A DNA stretch of 43,621 bases. It comes from an uncultured Nitrososphaeria archaeon (lineage in GTDB: Archaea; Thermoproteota; Nitrososphaeria_A; Caldarchaeales; Wolframiiraptoraceae). The number at the start of each line of letters is the position of its first letter. Within the stretch, counting starts at the first letter, position 1. Shown here one piece after another: positions 7,694 to 23,152 of this stretch. The DNA lies in NCBI GenBank assembly GCA_964540045.1, contig CAZILE010000001.1, positions 1-43,621 of the forward strand. The letters run 5' to 3'. The notes below the pieces were generated by a model, which saw only the letters and a list, made by a program, of their open reading frames with translations, did no database searches and was not told the origin of the DNA. Made by a program: the position numbers and the translations under genes.

Positions 7694-8482
7694 CTAAACC
7701 ACTCTCACTCTCAAGTATCTGGATTTCCTCAGGGCGAGATAGAGGTTAAATGCTATGATCGATGAGAATAAAATCATAAAGCCTCTTTCAGCAAGAGCCA
7801 CCGGAATCGCGGCCAAGTATACTCCAGCAAGCGCGCTCGGTTCAAATGAATGGAGCATATATCTAAAGACTATTATCGCGGCCAGACTCCCGTAAAGGTG
7901 GTCTGCGAAGATCCCAGCAGCGCACCCAGCTAAAACTCGGAGAACTATGAGGAGCATGGCCCGGCCTCCGCTCAGCTTAAGCATTAGGCTGCTGAAAACC
8001 ACCAGCAACATCGTTGCGAAGTAAGGCGCTGTGAAGAGCGCCGCAATCCTACCGACATCCGTCGCAAACCAGCATACCAGCAGAGCTGTATACATCGCCA
8101 TCGAGTAGAGCCATTTGGGAACTCTTAGGAGGCTTCCCCGATCAAATACGAGTGAAGAGGCTAATGAGCCTAGAGGCGCAGCGAATACTGTTACATAGCT
8201 GAAGATGCTGTATTTTCCAGGGAGGAGGAGCATGGCCATGATGGTTCCGAGGAATATTGATGAAGGCGCAAGAGCGTGGCCGAGAACGAGCCCATAAACC
8301 GGTGATAGGGCGGTGGCGATCTCGATCTTGACCCCGGGAAACCCAAAGGCCGGAATTCCTGGAAGCATCTTCAATATGACCATGTAGAGGGAGCTAAAGC
8401 TCGCCAGCAAAGCCGCATTCAAGCTAATCCGCCTAGCCATCGGCTTAGACATCGTCAGAATCAGGCATCTCTCAGGCCACAA
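7694..8482 (-). CDS. Polytopic membrane protein of unknown function (possible vitamin/C1-cofactor transporter component)
   Basis: About 6-7 hydrophobic helices and no catalytic motif recognised. Located between metF and glyA. Confidence 0.5.
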   Translation of the reverse strand: MWPERCLILTMSKPMARRISLNAALLASFSSLYMVILKMLPGIPAFGFPGVKIEIATALSPVYGLVLGHALAPSSIFLGTIMAMLLLPGKYSIFSYVTVFAAPLGSLASSLVFDRGSLLRVPKWLYSMAMYTALLVCWFATDVGRIAALFTAPYFATMLLVVFSSLMLKLSGGRAMLLIVLRVLAGCAAGIFADHLYGSLAAIIVFRYMLHSFEPSALAGVYLAAIPVALAERGFMILFSSIIAFNLYLALRKSRYLRVRVV

Positions 8483-17985: not shown

Positions 17986-18639
17986 TCAGGGTTGGAGGCC
18001 GACCTTATCCTTAACTCTTTTCAGAAAAGAACTCAAGGACCCAGTTATTTTATCTCCCCAATATTCTGGCTCCGTTAAGATCTCTTCGGAGGGCTCCGGC
18101 CGCCGCACCCTTCTGCTGATGTACTTGAGCTCCATTGTTTCAACACCTCTTAGGGTGCTTTCCAAAAGCTTCTGCCTCTGAATCCCGATCGAGACCGCTA
18201 CTTGGACAACTTGACCTTTAGAATTCACCCTGAAGACGCTGAACTTGAGGTCTTGAAGCTTCCTAGTCCGAGCATATTTCAGCGGATCTATGACGAGGGC
18301 GACAGCCTTTGGAAACATCTTCTGATACATCTTCTGAGTCTCCACATCTATCGCTGAGAGGAATATGCTGAAACCTGGATGAGAGTGATACCACCCAACT
18401 ATATACAATCCTGGCCTATTTCGGAGAACCCATTCAGCCGCAGCTGCGATCGTATCCTCTTCTAGGTAAACAAATCCCGGGGTCGATTTTTGATCTCCTG
18501 TAATCGCATCCCAGATCTCTAGAATATCACTTTTCTTCAAGTATTTTCCTATTAGAAGGCCTGCGACCTCCCTCTCTAGATCGTTTAACGTGTGCTTGAT
18601 TATCTTGCCTAAAGCCAACGGATATACTCTAGCTCTCAT
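17986..18639 (-). CDS. JAB1/MPN/Mov34 (JAMM) metalloisopeptidase, Rpn11-like
   Basis: Complete JAMM motif: E in LEREVAGLLIG, then GWYHSHPGFSIFLSAID (HxHx7Sx2D). Divergently transcribed from the ubiquitin-like gene. Confidence 0.9.
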   Translation of the reverse strand: MRARVYPLALGKIIKHTLNDLEREVAGLLIGKYLKKSDILEIWDAITGDQKSTPGFVYLEEDTIAAAAEWVLRNRPGLYIVGWYHSHPGFSIFLSAIDVETQKMYQKMFPKAVALVIDPLKYARTRKLQDLKFSVFRVNSKGQVVQVAVSIGIQRQKLLESTLRGVETMELKYISRRVRRPEPSEEILTEPEYWGDKITGSLSSFLKRVKDKVGLQP

Positions 18640-18842: not shown

Positions 18843-19079
18843 ATGAAAATCAGGATTGTTCCAGCCATTGGCGGGGGCAGCCCCATAGAGCTTGAGGTTT
18901 CGCCTGCTACAACGATAGGGGCCATTAGAGCGAAAGTTTGCGCTATGAAGAAGCTTCCACCTGATACCACGAGACTTACCTTCAGAGGTAGGGCGCTTAA
19001 GGATACTGAGACTTTGGAATCTATTGGAGCTCAGGATGGCGATAAGCTCATATTGATAACTAGAACGGTCGGCGGATAA
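18843..19079 (+). CDS. Ubiquitin-like protein (true ubiquitin family), mature-form C-terminus RTVGG-stop
   Basis: 78 aa. It aligns by eye along its full length with ubiquitin (LEV.P..TI..(I/V)(R/K)AK(V/I)......PPD..RL.F.G..L.D..TL......(I/L).L(I/V)......GG) and ends directly in GG. Confidence 0.9.
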   Translation: MKIRIVPAIGGGSPIELEVSPATTIGAIRAKVCAMKKLPPDTTRLTFRGRALKDTETLESIGAQDGDKLILITRTVGG

Positions 19080-19155: not shown

Positions 19156-19635
19156 TTGAGGACTGAGCTTCCTGAGGCTTTATGGAATAGAAGGCTGGCT
19201 CTAGAATATAAGCTAATGCGGGAAAACGAGCCGACCTTCGATATCGTAAATGACCAACTAACCCGTTACAGAGGGGTCATAATAGGCGAGGGGCTGTATG
19301 AAGGAGGATTCTTTAAGATCGAGATAACTGTTCCTAGAGAATTTCCCTATGTGCCACCTGATGTGATTTGGTGGACAAGAATCTGGCATCCAAACTTCAC
19401 CGATGAAGTTCCAGCGAGAATCTGCGAATCCATATTCAAGAATGACTGGAGCCCTTCGCTTCACATATTCTCCATAATTGAGGCTTTGAGAAACCTTCTA
19501 AATAACCCCAATCCAGACGATCCCTTAAACACCTTCGCCGCCGCCGAGATGAAATATAGACCTGACATATTTGAGGCAAGAGTCAGGAGGTATATTGAGC
19601 TGTATGCCAGGCCGGAGTTAGCGTTCCAAGAGTGA
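19156..19635 (+). CDS. Ubiquitin-conjugating enzyme (E2, UBC fold)
   Basis: RIWHPNF (HPN motif) followed by ARICESIFKNDWSPSL, with the catalytic Cys codon at 19423-19425. N-terminal RRLALEYKLM helix. TTG start. Confidence 0.85.
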   Translation: MRTELPEALWNRRLALEYKLMRENEPTFDIVNDQLTRYRGVIIGEGLYEGGFFKIEITVPREFPYVPPDVIWWTRIWHPNFTDEVPARICESIFKNDWSPSLHIFSIIEALRNLLNNPNPDDPLNTFAAAEMKYRPDIFEARVRRYIELYARPELAFQE

Positions 19636-19681: not shown

Positions 19682-20863
19682 ATGGAAGAGGAGGAGAGGA
19701 AGCTGCTAGAGAGATATGATCGCCAGCTAAGGGTTGAGGGATGGGATCAAGAGAGGCTCACTAAGTCATCCGTGATTATCGTGGGCGTTGGCGCTACTGG
19801 ATGTGAGGTATCTAAAAACTTGGCTCTTATGGGAGTAGGCAAGTTAATCCTGATAGACAACGACGTTATCGAACTCTCAAACCTCAGCAGGCAGATGCTC
19901 TTCTTAGAGGAAGATATAGGTAAGTCAAAGGCGCTTGTTGCCGCGGAGAGGTTGAGAAAGATGAATCCCTTCGTGGAAATCGAGGCTTACTTTGAAGACG
20001 TTAGGAATATTGACGAAGGCTTATTCGATAAAGCGAACGTGATAGCATCATGTCTCGACAACTGGCCCGTGAGGAGATGGCTCAACTCCCTAGCAATCGA
20101 GCTTAACAAGCCCTTAGTGGATATCGCGATGGAAGGCTTTTATGCTAACCTTCAGGTGATCATTCCGGGAAAGACGGCATGTTTAGAATGTCATGGAGAA
20201 GACTTGATACCTAAAGAGGTTCAGCTCGCTGAATGTACTCTGAAGAGAAGAAGACCAGAAGACTTAGTTCAAGATCTTAAATCGGCTGGAGTAAACGTGA
20301 GCTTGAAGCTGGCCAAGAAGCTATTTGATCACAACATTAAAACAATCTATGACTTAAAATACGCTCAGGAAGGCGCCTTGATGAAATTGGATGAAAAGAC
20401 TCAAAAGATCGTGAGGGATATCAGAGAGAAGCTTAAGCCGAAGATGCCAGCCCTTCAGAGCGTCGCCGCGCTGATCTCCGGAATAGCCTCAACCGAAATA
20501 ATTAAGATCCTTCACGGGGATAGGCTGGGAGAGCCCATTAAGGACCTCCTTGTTTATGATGGCTTGGCAGGGCAGTTCACCAGGGTGAAGCTTGACCGCA
20601 ACCCGGAATGCTTCGTCTGCGGGGATCTGGTTGAGGAGGAGATAAAATTTCCCGTTAAGCCAACCGAGACTATTCTGGATCTGAAAAAGAGAATAGCTGA
20701 AACCTTCAGTATCCCCGACCCAGAGATTCTTTACGGTAGCTGGAGGCTCGCTGATGACAAGAGAGTTTCCGAGATAGGGCTTAGGGAGAACGACACGATA
20801 TACATTAGCACCAGCAGAAGATTTATGCCACTACAACTGAGAGTTCAGATAGTGGAGGAGTGA
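19682..20863 (+). CDS. Ubiquitin-activating enzyme-like protein (E1; ThiF/MoeB adenylation domain + C-terminal ubiquitin-fold domain)
   Basis: RYDRQLRVEGW..VIIVGVGATGCEVSKNLALMGVGKLILIDNDVIELSNLSRQ adenylation signature. CxxC pairs CLEC and CFVC. Candidate catalytic Cys in AECTLK. C-terminal roughly 75-aa beta-grasp-like tail. Confidence 0.9.
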   Translation: MEEEERKLLERYDRQLRVEGWDQERLTKSSVIIVGVGATGCEVSKNLALMGVGKLILIDNDVIELSNLSRQMLFLEEDIGKSKALVAAERLRKMNPFVEIEAYFEDVRNIDEGLFDKANVIASCLDNWPVRRWLNSLAIELNKPLVDIAMEGFYANLQVIIPGKTACLECHGEDLIPKEVQLAECTLKRRRPEDLVQDLKSAGVNVSLKLAKKLFDHNIKTIYDLKYAQEGALMKLDEKTQKIVRDIREKLKPKMPALQSVAALISGIASTEIIKILHGDRLGEPIKDLLVYDGLAGQFTRVKLDRNPECFVCGDLVEEEIKFPVKPTETILDLKKRIAETFSIPDPEILYGSWRLADDKRVSEIGLRENDTIYISTSRRFMPLQLRVQIVEE

Positions 20864-21111
20864 CCTACATGGGAAGAATTCTCATAGAAAAGGAGAAAAA
20901 GGTCGGAGACTGGGATCTAAGATTCGAGGAGGAAAACAAAGAGGCTAGAGCGAATATCTGTCCCGTCTGCTCCCTCGAGATCGAGGAGGGCGCGCCGGTC
21001 TTCGAGTGTCCCTTCTGCGGAAATGTCATGCATATGAGATGCGTTCAACCATGGATTGAGAGCCGAGGGACTTGCCCAATTTGCCGAAGACCTTTATCTG
21101 AGAGCTCCTAG
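20860..21111 (+). CDS. Small RING-like zinc-finger protein (candidate E3)
   Basis: CPVC-x12-CPFC-x4-H-x2-C-x10-CPIC with the RING-H2-like tail HMRCVQPWI..GTCPICRR. Start is either GTG 20860 (overlapping the E1 stop) or ATG 20869, which is preceded by GGAGGAG. Confidence 0.85.
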   Translation: MTYMGRILIEKEKKVGDWDLRFEEENKEARANICPVCSLEIEEGAPVFECPFCGNVMHMRCVQPWIESRGTCPICRRPLSESS

Positions 21112-21485: not shown

Positions 21486-22338
21486 CGACAGCGCGCCTCA
21501 TATCTGCTATGAGCTTCTCAAGGTTGGAGCGCTTCGCCTCAAGCTCCTTTACTTCGGCTTCCAGCCTCCGCTTACGTTCATTTAACGTGTTTAGCTCGCT
21601 TCTCAGCTGGAGGACTTTTCTTTCAAGCTCCTCCGCCTCTTCCTCCTTCTCCCTCAATTTCGATAAAGATCGTCTGAGCTCGGCTTCCTTTCTGATAAGC
21701 CTTTCCATCCTTATTTCCCTGAGCTTGAAGTCCCTGAGAAGCTCCTTAAGCATGTCTCCAAGCTTGCTTCTAGCTTCTTCAAGCTCTTTCAAATAACGAT
21801 TCTCCAGCTCAGAAACCTTGCGCTCAAGGTCGAGCTTCTTATCCTCAAGCTGCTTGAGCTCGGCCTCCCTTAACGCTAAATTTCTTTCCTTCGCGTCCAA
21901 CTCATCTCTCCACTTTCTAAGCTCTTCCCGGATTACTGCTAATTCGCTCTTCTCCTTTAAGACCATCTCCGCGTCCTGTTTAACCGCTTCACGCTCCTTG
22001 CTCAAAGTCTCAATTACATCCTTCAGGCCATCTTGAATTGAGAGAAGAGTGTTTTCGTAAAACTTAACTTGCTCGAGCCCCTCAGCAATCTTCTCAGCTC
22101 TCTCAACAAACTGAGATAAACTTAGTTTCATTGCATCCGGCTGAGAGGACAGATCGCTGAGAAGCGATGAGGCCTCTGCCAACCTAGCCTCAATCCTTCT
22201 AAGAGATTCTTGAAGAGAATCCAGTCTCATAGAGAATTCTTGTTCAAAGCTTCTCAATTTCTCTTCAAGCTTGCTCTCAACCTCTTCAATCTTTTTTCCT
22301 CCAAATGGCGTCATTCCGAAATCATTGAGCAGAAGCAT
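21475..22338 (-). CDS. Long coiled-coil protein, unknown function
   Basis: 287 aa, almost entirely heptad-repeat E/K/L/R sequence. Its 3' end overlaps the convergent coiled-coil ORF by 11 bp. Confidence 0.6.
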   Translation of the reverse strand: MLLLNDFGMTPFGGKKIEEVESKLEEKLRSFEQEFSMRLDSLQESLRRIEARLAEASSLLSDLSSQPDAMKLSLSQFVERAEKIAEGLEQVKFYENTLLSIQDGLKDVIETLSKEREAVKQDAEMVLKEKSELAVIREELRKWRDELDAKERNLALREAELKQLEDKKLDLERKVSELENRYLKELEEARSKLGDMLKELLRDFKLREIRMERLIRKEAELRRSLSKLREKEEEAEELERKVLQLRSELNTLNERKRRLEAEVKELEAKRSNLEKLIADMRRAVVSP

Positions 22339-22423
22339 TATAAAAAGTTGTTCTTTGTTATGGCCAGTTGATAGTTAGGCTAAAGTTTTTACGCGCCGTT
22401 TATAAGGTGGCAAGTACAGATGT

Positions 22424-23152
22424 GTGAGGGGGAGTTGCGCGAAGTTGTTCACCACTAGAGAAGAAGTCTTATCAAGATTGTATAAGATAGGGTCAGGCGC
22501 AGCGGCCATAGGAGCAATCCATATACTCACCCTTCTCATGAGCTGGTATGTTCAAGTAATCGATGGATCTGAGATACCGATCGAGGGGTGGATAATACCG
22601 GAAGCGAGAATTATGTCGCTCGTCGGAGGTCTTATGGCCGGCATAGGAATAATCGTGATACACTTTATCAAGAGACTTAAGTCCATGAAAATTCTCTTGG
22701 GCTCTCTAATAGTTGTAGGGGGGGCATTAGCAACGCTCTCGCCCGTCTACTCTTACATGTTCTGGTTATCAAATATTGTAACTTACCCGAGATTCGATTT
22801 GGGATTCTTCGCGTCAGCCTTCACCGGCGTCATTCAGCTAGGTATCGGAGCACTCGCATTACTCACCCCTGTTAAGGAAGAAGTAATTCCATCAGCAGTC
22901 GTACCTTCCCCGATCACTTTACCGGAAACCGGCGTAGTTACCCGAGGCCCCAGCAGATCCACAACTGCCAGGCTAGTCCCCGTCTCGGACGTCGAAGAAG
23001 CAATCTGCAGCCTATGTTTTGAGCCGATAGCTCAAGGGGATGCAGTGAGGTGCAGTAATTGCGATGCGATATTCCATAAAGGATGCGTTGATGCTTGGGT
23101 GAGCGTTAACGGAACATGTCCGAGCTGTAAGGCCATAATAACTGGAAGCTAA
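22424..23152 (+). CDS. Membrane protein (about 4 TM helices) with C-terminal RING-like zinc finger (candidate membrane-anchored E3)
   Basis: Four hydrophobic segments, a P/S/T-rich linker, then CSLC-x11-CSNC-x4-H-x2-C-x10-CPSC (codons 23006-23128). The spacing is essentially that of the operon finger at 20860-21111. GTG start. Confidence 0.7.
   Translation: MRGSCAKLFTTREEVLSRLYKIGSGAAAIGAIHILTLLMSWYVQVIDGSEIPIEGWIIPEARIMSLVGGLMAGIGIIVIHFIKRLKSMKILLGSLIVVGGALATLSPVYSYMFWLSNIVTYPRFDLGFFASAFTGVIQLGIGALALLTPVKEEVIPSAVVPSPITLPETGVVTRGPSRSTTARLVPVSDVEEAICSLCFEPIAQGDAVRCSNCDAIFHKGCVDAWVSVNGTCPSCKAIITGS

Follow-up and report, generated by a model that had tools for sequence, protein, structure and literature searches.

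The window analysed here, a stretch of 43,621 nucleotides (positions 1 to 43,621 of contig CAZILE010000001.1, assembly GCA_964540045.1) from an uncultured, heat-loving, Wolframiiraptor-like archaeon of the order Caldarchaeales, carries a ubiquitin operon and, shortly after it, a gene for a protein with four membrane helices and a C-terminal RING finger, referred to below as TM-RING. The protein is a member of a family of membrane-integrated RING proteins that spans the order, has not been discussed before and accompanies the best-studied ubiquitin system of archaea. Taking its sequence and predicted structure together, we consider it reasonably probable that TM-RING is a membrane-tethered ubiquitin ligase (E3) of the RING-H2 type, which would use the ubiquitin-conjugating enzyme (E2) of the operon on proteins in or at the membrane. 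The operon also encodes srfp, a small soluble RING protein whose counterpart in Caldiarchaeum subterraneum acts as an E3 in vitro (PMC5654768). The original prediction, made from the DNA alone, had proposed a membrane-tethered E3 beside this soluble one and had likened it to eukaryotic ligases of endoplasmic-reticulum-associated degradation (ERAD) and of the MARCH type; transmembrane helices, profile match and fold speak for a membrane-embedded RING of the E3 type, and it is the kinship with the ERAD and MARCH proteins that falls away.

Results

The finger is a RING-H2 domain

The finger of TM-RING has the pattern C-x2-C-x11-C-x2-C-x4-H-x2-C-x10-C-x2-C (residues 195-235, nucleotides 23006-23128; residues are numbered throughout as in a 242-residue protein starting at GTG 22424), with C195, C198, C210, C213, H218, C221, C232 and C235 as putative zinc ligands. 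The finger of srfp, at nucleotides 20959-21084, follows the same pattern with x12 instead of x11 in the first loop, and both translations also contain the H-x2-C-V-x2-W...GTCP-x-C tail, as had been predicted for the pair. They are the sole two motifs of this kind in the six frames of the window, and 300 shuffles of the window contained none. The Pfam family zf-RING_2 (PF13639, cut-off 27.3 bits) matches TM-RING with 38.2 bits over residues 195-236, covering positions 3-44 of the 44 in the profile, and srfp with 41.7 bits. All eight putative Cys/His zinc ligands are invariant across the TM-RING family and have the spacing of a cross-brace.

A finger profile built from 18 family members and searched against the PDB returned only RING-H2 E3s as its top matches: Arkadia (47-52 bits), ZNRF1 (48), RNF165/ARK2C (45), RNF38 (43), EL5 (42), RLIM (41), RNF13 (36), gp78 (35) and HRD1 (33); the best PHD match was partial and reached 22 bits. 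The alignment with Arkadia is gapless and places the archaeal fourth Cys on canonical Cys3 and an Ala on canonical His4, the archaeal third Cys lying three residues upstream. Across 55 distinct fingers, drawn from 78 TM-RING family proteins, the canonical His4 position is occupied by Ala, Thr, Met, Phe or Glu and never by His, so the canonical C3H2C3 order is not found in the family. By alignment, then, the finger is a RING-H2 domain in which one putative ligand of the second zinc site has migrated, His4 being replaced by a Cys three residues upstream. The best match to the finger profile, PDB 7p2k, is an Arg-to-Cys mutant of the Arkadia RING, and its new Cys falls exactly at the extra ligand Cys of the archaeal fingers.

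The fold predicted by AlphaFold2 (AF2) points to the same class. A separate model of the finger (57 residues, predicted local distance difference test (pLDDT) 84.5) has a strand-strand-helix layout, and in a Foldseek search against the PDB RING E3 domains fill all of the top 50 matches, with a TM-score (query) of 0.54-0.76 and a root-mean-square deviation (rmsd) of 1.3-3 Å. Many of these are co-crystals with ubiquitin-charged E2 (E2~Ub), for example RNF12 6w9d_B at an rmsd of 1.9 Å, and no PHD, C1 or RING-CH domain is among the 50.

The nominal ligand order of the finger, C4HC3, is one that the RING-CH domains of MARCH proteins and the PHD fingers have in common with it. The spacing around the His differs from that of RING-CH (C-x-C-x(n)-H, as against C-x2-C-x4-H here), and no RINGv family is among the 24 Pfam matches at E<=1; the signature Trp of PHD fingers before Cys7 is missing, and the Pfam PHD match is partial and remains at 16.4 bits against a cut-off of 24. 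Readings of the pattern as a C1 domain or a zinc ribbon were likewise rejected in view of profile scores, alignment and fold. Of the earlier description as a RING-H2-like finger with C4HC3 order, both the RING-H2 character and the nominal order stand; profile and structure comparison leave no place for a PHD-like or MARCH-like class.

The predicted E2-contact surface is conserved

In srfp of C. subterraneum three residues, I30 between Cys1 and Cys2, W58 in the helix and R69 after Cys8, are required for ubiquitylation, as mutation has demonstrated (PMC5654768). Their equivalents in TM-RING are Leu197, Trp225 and Lys236, which with Pro233 make up its E2-contact set. Among the 55 fingers, the residue two places after Cys1 is hydrophobic in all, Pro follows Cys7 in all and the helix Trp is present in 53; the linchpin is Lys in 38 of the 55 and is kept as Lys in each of the 30 close (Wolframiiraptor-like) homologues that were aligned. 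The E2 of the window, for its part, retains PY64, HPN78 and WSPS98, and the PY and PS loops of E2 have been named as the loops that contact the RING (PMC5654768). This pattern of conservation is consistent with a finger that binds E2~Ub and, at least in this clade, activates it. Profile, predicted fold and contact residues all fit an active RING E3.

A tetraspan domain and a flexible linker carry the finger

The four membrane helices, the P/S/T-rich linker and the C-terminal finger of the original prediction are borne out by hydropathy, AF2 and composition alike. Hydrophobic segments lie at approximately residues 25-46, 61-82, 88-108 and 127-149, and AF2 places helices at 12-38, 59-79, 85-118 and 126-147 with a pLDDT above 90. 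In the linker the pLDDT drops below 50 over residues 154-177, and this is the least conserved part of the protein; the C-terminal domain that follows is again modelled with confidence.

The distribution of charge predicts on which side of the membrane the finger lies. Averaged over 16 diverse members of the family, a sequence has 2.5 Lys and Arg residues in its N-terminal tail, 1.75 in loop 2 (to which the start of the third helix adds one), 1.4 in loop 3 and 0.31 in loop 1, where there are also about two acidic residues. The positive-inside rule thus predicts a cytoplasmic location for the N-terminus, for loop 2 and for the C-terminal linker with the RING. The cytoplasm is also where the ubiquitin-activating enzyme (E1), E2 and ubiquitin are.

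Within the membrane domain R18, H33, W41, G55, S65, S106, Y109 and G127 are invariant. Nearly all residues of the wider conserved set (G30, H33, L35, L37, L38, W41, G55, S65, G69, S106, P107, Y109 and G127) are in the outer halves of the helices, and this clustering of invariant polar and aromatic residues suggests that the domain is not a passive anchor and that it may recognise a partner, a substrate or a signal at the outer face.

Pfam has no match in TM-RING outside the finger, neither Pfam nor NCBIfam has a model for the membrane domain, and NCBIfam has none for the whole protein or for its two coiled-coil neighbours. Most of the top 50 Foldseek matches of the membrane domain are claudins, TARP gamma subunits or MP20, with E-values of 1.7e-3 or worse, a TM-score (target) of about 0.5, an rmsd of 5-6 Å and 12-17% identity. 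The claudin/PMP22/TARP tetraspans likewise combine four helices with an outer beta sheet; theirs is formed by loops 1 and 2, whereas the TM-RING model has only a three-strand sheet. We treat the likeness, which is weak, as a topological resemblance only.

The family is confined to Caldarchaeales

Word-indexed searches found 38 full-length relatives of TM-RING at 51-80% identity, and a profile search added others down to 25%. They are labelled "hypothetical", "RING finger protein" or "RING-H2 finger protein" in the databases and come from Wolframiiraptor, Terraquivivens, Caldarchaeum, Calditenuis and Pelearchaeum; the named relatives of the protein in the window come from Candidatus Wolframiiraptor and from metagenome-assembled genomes labelled "Aigarchaeota" or "Nitrososphaeria". 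When 1.84 billion representative proteins were scanned exhaustively (HMMER) with a profile of the membrane domain alone, only 15 clusters were found, and every intact real match among them is a protein of 230-280 residues with the same C-terminal finger. The remaining matches comprise a copy that is frameshifted or truncated and two giants (P0170 and P0171), which match the membrane profile in six stretches and were treated as probably spurious. As far as these searches reach, the membrane domain is restricted to Caldarchaeales (formerly Aigarchaeota) and is fused only to this RING. A candidate for a second architecture, P0039 (L002 6001-6924), in which the first 93 residues of a family member are joined to the C-terminus of a histidine kinase, was rejected: it lies about 130 nt from the end of its contig and at the syntenic position, and is for these reasons most likely an assembly chimera.

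The gene most likely starts at TTG 22445

The longest open reading frame (ORF) of TM-RING runs from 22424 to 23152 on the plus strand, opens with GTG and encodes 242 residues, and it was in this form that the gene had been predicted. The frame is real; the start is most likely TTG 22445, 21 nt downstream, which shortens the protein to 235 residues. About 30 homologues begin at an aligned TTG, GTG or ATG, and this start column is conserved, together with TATA and GGAG-like motifs upstream, in an alignment of the intergenic DNA of eight relatives. Across these eight regions, from genomes whose proteins are 51-67% identical, the letters TTATAA are invariant, and the TATA-like box that contains them (Table 1) is likely to be a promoter of the gene's own. 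The GGAG-like motifs of the relatives occupy the same place as the one here, about 10 nt before the start codon.

That the ORF is not a real gene, or its motif a chance pattern, is an idea with next to no probability left: an unusual GTG or TTG start is all that speaks for it, and it is refuted by the conservation of at least 78 homologues with the same architecture down to 25% identity, by the invariant ligands and conserved promoter elements, and by the lack of a single occurrence of the motif in the shuffled windows.

TM-RING is inherited in a block with srfp

Linkage was followed in stretches of at most 20 kb surrounding the genes, at the loci of 14 species-level genomes of the GTDB collection and at ten further loci. 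Wherever the flank is long enough, the order srfp, coiled-coil gene on the plus strand, coiled-coil gene on the minus strand, TM-RING is unbroken (a 24th locus, L022, ends inside the second coiled-coil gene), with srfp and TM-RING about 1.3 kb apart in every locus. Among close relatives the flanking housekeeping genes, too, are collinear, which makes the linkage in these genomes weak evidence if taken alone. The upstream neighbours differ among loci, being L21e and Rpb4 here, L11, L1 and L10 in L022 and L025 and other genes in L023 and L027, and rearrangements have occurred on either side: in L023 an insertion separates the genes for ubiquitin and E2 from those for E1 and srfp, in L019 a gene has been inserted between TM-RING and the gene for glycyl-tRNA synthetase (GlyRS), and in L024 the GlyRS gene is inverted. 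The four-gene block is intact in L023, and also in L024 and L028, where there is no gene for ubiquitin, E2 or E1 within 8-10 kb; L021, conversely, has a JAB-ubiquitin-E2-E1 cluster with no srfp block beside it. Since the block survives these rearrangements and its separation from ubiquitin, E2 and E1, the unit of inheritance is srfp, the two coiled-coil genes and TM-RING.

The original prediction had named a distribution independent of the ubiquitin operon as a result that would speak against it. No such independence was seen at these loci: srfp lies beside TM-RING in every locus seen, and no TM-RING gene was met without it; the tightest partners, however, are srfp and the coiled-coil genes and not ubiquitin, E2 and E1.

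Some details of the loci may be recorded here. In some Caldarchaeales the part with ubiquitin, E2 and E1 and the E3 part (srfp, the two coiled-coil genes and TM-RING) are found at different places. For the E1 of the L028 type (P0147) and for the corresponding TM-RING (P0168) alike, the longest contig on record has 733,637 bp, and the two genes probably lie on one contig, apart from each other. The insert in L023 (5989-8001, Candidatus Terraquivivens tikiterensis) consists of fragments of a CitMHS transporter and a small ORF with a zinc ribbon like that of Cas12f1 or TnpB, and was likely left behind by a mobile element. Directly upstream of srfp, L024 encodes a PALP enzyme and a ThiS-like protein.

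Relation to srfp

The spacing shared by the two fingers had been called idiosyncratic and had been taken as a sign of paralogy. It is not idiosyncratic: the C-x2-C...C-x2-C spacing was printed for the srfp of C. subterraneum in 2011 by Nunoura et al. (PMC3082918), and the extra "C3B" cysteine of that protein was noted by Hennell James et al. (PMC5654768). As the same motif stands in print for another genome, the spacing and the shifted ligand are a lineage trait of these archaeal RINGs and not a peculiarity of this one. Nor do the scores single out a paralogue. The TM-RING and srfp of the window are 36% identical over 50 residues; the TM-RING profile gives 28-59 bits with srfp fingers and the srfp profile 45-51 bits with TM-RING fingers, values that fall in the range of those for eukaryotic RING-H2 domains (47-52 bits for Arkadia). 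Judged by these scores, overall similarity does not mark srfp as the closest relative of the TM-RING finger. A common origin within the archaeal lineage is plausible all the same, given the shared relocation of the ligand and the constant adjacency of the genes.

The two proteins have in common the ligand pattern C-x2-C-x11/12-C-x2-C-x4-H-x2-C-x10/11-C-x2-C (srfp being CSUB_C1477 in C. subterraneum), the replacement of the fourth-ligand His by a Cys three residues upstream and the E2-contact residues. They differ in nearly everything else. A soluble protein of 70-100 residues, srfp is encoded directly after E1 and appears to be translationally coupled to it; TM-RING has 230-280 residues, a tetraspan domain, a linker and promoter-like elements of its own, and its gene is separated from E1 by srfp and two further genes. 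The two are separate families, and no intermediates connect them.

Comparison with eukaryotic membrane E3s

Membrane RING E3s such as Hrd1, gp78, the PA-TM-RING proteins and the MARCH proteins are commonplace in eukaryotes. The best matches of the TM-RING finger, in sequence as well as in structure, are the RING-H2 domains of Arkadia/RNF165, RNF38 and RLIM (RNF12), with which it shares a gapless alignment, a hydrophobic residue after Cys1, the helix Trp, the C-P-x-C motif and a basic linchpin. It differs from them in its order of ligands, C4HC3 against C3H2C3, and there is no homology outside the finger. In their layout the PA-TM-RING proteins (RNF13, RMR1), Hrd1/synoviolin and gp78/AMFR follow the same logic as TM-RING, in which one or more transmembrane segments are followed by a cytoplasmic linker and a C-terminal RING-H2 domain. 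The membrane domain of TM-RING is unrelated to theirs or to that of MARCH proteins: it has neither a PA domain nor features like those of a retrotranslocon, and the Foldseek search that returned claudin and TARP tetraspans for the membrane part gave no match to Hrd1, gp78 or RNF13. The resemblance to eukaryotic membrane E3s would accordingly be one of analogy, or one shared only through the RING.

Several RINGs in one genome are not new, as an aigarchaeote has up to nine zf_RING_2 proteins by the count of Grau-Bové et al. (PMC4327156). According to the functional study of the C. subterraneum system, only small RING finger proteins have been identified in archaea (PMC5654768, Supplementary Note 6). 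A literature search, in which subscription journals were thinly covered, found no published membrane-anchored RING E3 of archaea and no account of the genes downstream of srfp in C. subterraneum, which agrees with the earlier view that a membrane-bound archaeal E3 had not been described.

The operon and the other genes of the window

The features of the locus are collected in Table 1. Ubiquitin, E2 and E1 are presumed to be the partners of both RINGs, and a GlyRS gene follows TM-RING.

Table 1. Coordinates of the TM-RING gene, its parts and its neighbours in the window
Feature	Position	Strand	Basis and remarks
Rpn11-like JAB/MPN deubiquitinase	17986..18639	-	Pfam JAB, 63.8 bits; divergent from the operon
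Ubiquitin	18843..19079	+	Pfam ubiquitin
E2	19156..19635	+	Pfam UQ_con
E1 with C-terminal ubiquitin-like domain	19682..20863	+	Pfam ThiF and ubiquitin
srfp, small soluble RING protein	20860..21111	+	zf-RING_2; counterpart of C. subterraneum srfp
Coiled-coil protein, 107 residues	21162..21485	+	Directly after srfp; generic coiled-coil matches only
Coiled-coil protein, about 279 residues	21475..22314	-	Divergent from TM-RING; longest ORF reaches 22338
TATA-like box of the ~279-residue coiled-coil gene	22338..22347	-	Conserved in the intergenic alignment
TATA-like box TTTATAAGG	22399..22407	+	About 40 nt 5' of TTG 22445; conserved in aligned relatives
GGGGGAG, Shine-Dalgarno-like	22428..22434	+	10 nt 5' of TTG 22445; putative role
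TM-RING gene	22445..23152	+	235 residues from TTG 22445, stop included; ORF and starts of homologues
Tetraspan membrane domain (residues 12-149); loop 1 contains a short beta hairpin	22457..22870	+	Hydropathy, AF2
Disordered P/S/T/V-rich linker (residues 150-187), predicted cytoplasmic	22871..22984	+	pLDDT, conservation, composition
RING domain (residues 188-242)	22985..23149	+	Pfam zf-RING_2, invariant ligands, PDB profile matches, AF2/Foldseek

The GTG start of srfp overlaps the stop codon of E1 (20860-20863), which suggests that the translation of the two is coupled. The ubiquitin of the window ends in ...TVGG followed by the stop and is encoded in its mature form. That of C. subterraneum has a propeptide of nine residues, which is removed by Rpn11, and relatives at the loci L003, L019 and L027 encode versions of 86-87 residues.

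Of the two coiled-coil genes, which overlap convergently by 11 nt at their 3' ends, the shorter is kept right after srfp in nearly all srfp loci. The family of the longer one is marked in the alignment by the motifs M-x-x-x-G-G-K (N-terminal), KW, RYL and FKLREIRLERL. Its start is probably Met9 at 22314 and not the first ATG at 22338, because homologues start there and a conserved TATA-like box overlaps the eight codons with which the longest ORF begins. A reading of this protein as ESCRT-III-like or PspA-like was rejected, since Pfam gave no Snf7 match and the family profile found only generic coiled coils in the PDB. The two coiled-coil proteins may serve the two RINGs as adaptors or substrates.

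Scans of the whole window (1-43621) gave neither tRNA genes nor Rfam matches at gathering thresholds. Ten large ORFs scanned between 1653 and 14945 comprise nine housekeeping genes (PolD large subunit, PmbA/TldD, MTHFR, SHMT, a MetE-like pair, radical SAM, DUF123 and CGI-121) and one ORF (7694-8479) without a Pfam match.

Discussion

The mechanism that we propose is that the tetraspan domain, with both termini inside, holds TM-RING in the cytoplasmic membrane, while the linker, flexible and about 40 residues long, holds out the finger on the cytoplasmic side. In this position the finger would bind E2~Ub of the operon through the canonical surface, formed by the Leu or Ile between Cys1 and Cys2, Trp225 and Pro233, and the linchpin Lys236 would activate it, so that ubiquitin is moved to proteins in or at the membrane. 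The tetraspan domain may select the target or sense a cue. Because their genes are inherited as one block, srfp, the two coiled-coil proteins and TM-RING probably act together as an E3 layer. What the analysis shows is the architecture of the protein, the class of its RING, its conservation and the linkage of its gene; topology, binding to E2, activity as a ligase, targets and the formation of a complex are inferred.

Several observations weigh against this picture. The linchpin is Gly in 17 of the 55 fingers, in the Calditenuis-like and Caldarchaeum-like branches, and a few fingers are without the Trp; in these lineages activation of E2~Ub by the finger may be poor. As ligand 4 there is a relocated Cys in place of a His, with a possible effect on the predicted second zinc site, and the Foldseek E-values of the finger are weak (2.6e-3 or worse), as the domain has only 57 residues. 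The housekeeping gene for GlyRS is likewise a constant neighbour, and all carriers belong to one archaeal order; for these two reasons part of the synteny is a matter of common descent and not of selection for linkage.

The loss of the linchpin leads to an alternative that we regard as possible but rather unlikely, namely that the finger of TM-RING is a non-catalytic or weakly catalytic partner that docks srfp or E2 at the membrane, perhaps by way of the coiled-coil proteins, in the manner of BARD1, Bmi1 or MdmX, each of which pairs with an active RING. Catalysis would then fall to srfp, with location and specificity provided by the tetraspan protein. Linkage of the two RING genes to each other is indeed tighter than that of either to ubiquitin, E2 and E1, coiled-coil genes lie between them in every locus, and where several TM-RING lineages have lost the basic linchpin (Lys/Arg), their srfp keeps Arg or Lys one or two residues after Cys8 in 19 of 20 cases. 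Against such a division of labour, the membrane finger retains all known residues for E2 binding and activation both here and in the whole clade, and no element for RING-RING dimerisation, such as flanking helices, is evident in the AF2 models.

The constancy of GlyRS, in turn, speaks for a second alternative, in which TM-RING is a zinc-finger membrane protein with no role in ubiquitylation, for example a sensor or a scaffold with a RING-like treble clef for some other ligand, and its proximity to the operon is an inherited gene order that need not mean shared function. The weak, sub-threshold matches of the finger to C1, PHD and zinc-ribbon profiles would fit this, as would a sensing role suggested by the conservation at the outer face of the membrane domain. 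We judge it decidedly improbable: the conserved surface of the finger corresponds exactly to the E2-contact set of RING E3s and not to that of PHD or C1 domains, the PHD score lies below its cut-off, neither PHD nor C1 domains occur in the top 50 structural matches, and the block with srfp has outlasted rearrangements to either side.

If TM-RING is a membrane-tethered RING-H2 ligase, as we favour, it is tempting to go one step further. We speculate, while holding it unlikely as it stands, that srfp, the two coiled-coil proteins and TM-RING form one membrane-associated, multi-subunit E3 machine, in which a conserved outward-facing pocket couples a membrane or extracytoplasmic cue, or a damaged membrane protein, to ubiquitylation in the cytoplasm. 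Were this true, eukaryotic quality control of membrane proteins, or ubiquitin-dependent sorting, would have a prokaryotic forerunner in this machine, which would also give a lead to the first physiological targets of ubiquitin in archaea.

For the archaeal origin of ubiquitin signalling the operon of the Caldiarchaeum type serves as the reference model, and TM-RING, if it is an E3, adds three things to it. The presence of the family would imply that more than one E3 already existed in the archaeal system, that the addition of a domain to a RING to give it specificity, a eukaryotic strategy, was already in use there, and that one of its arms is aimed at the membrane. With a cytoplasmic fragment of about 60 residues that can be cloned, and the cognate E1, E2 and ubiquitin encoded on the same contig, TM-RING also offers a handle on the purpose of ubiquitylation in archaea.

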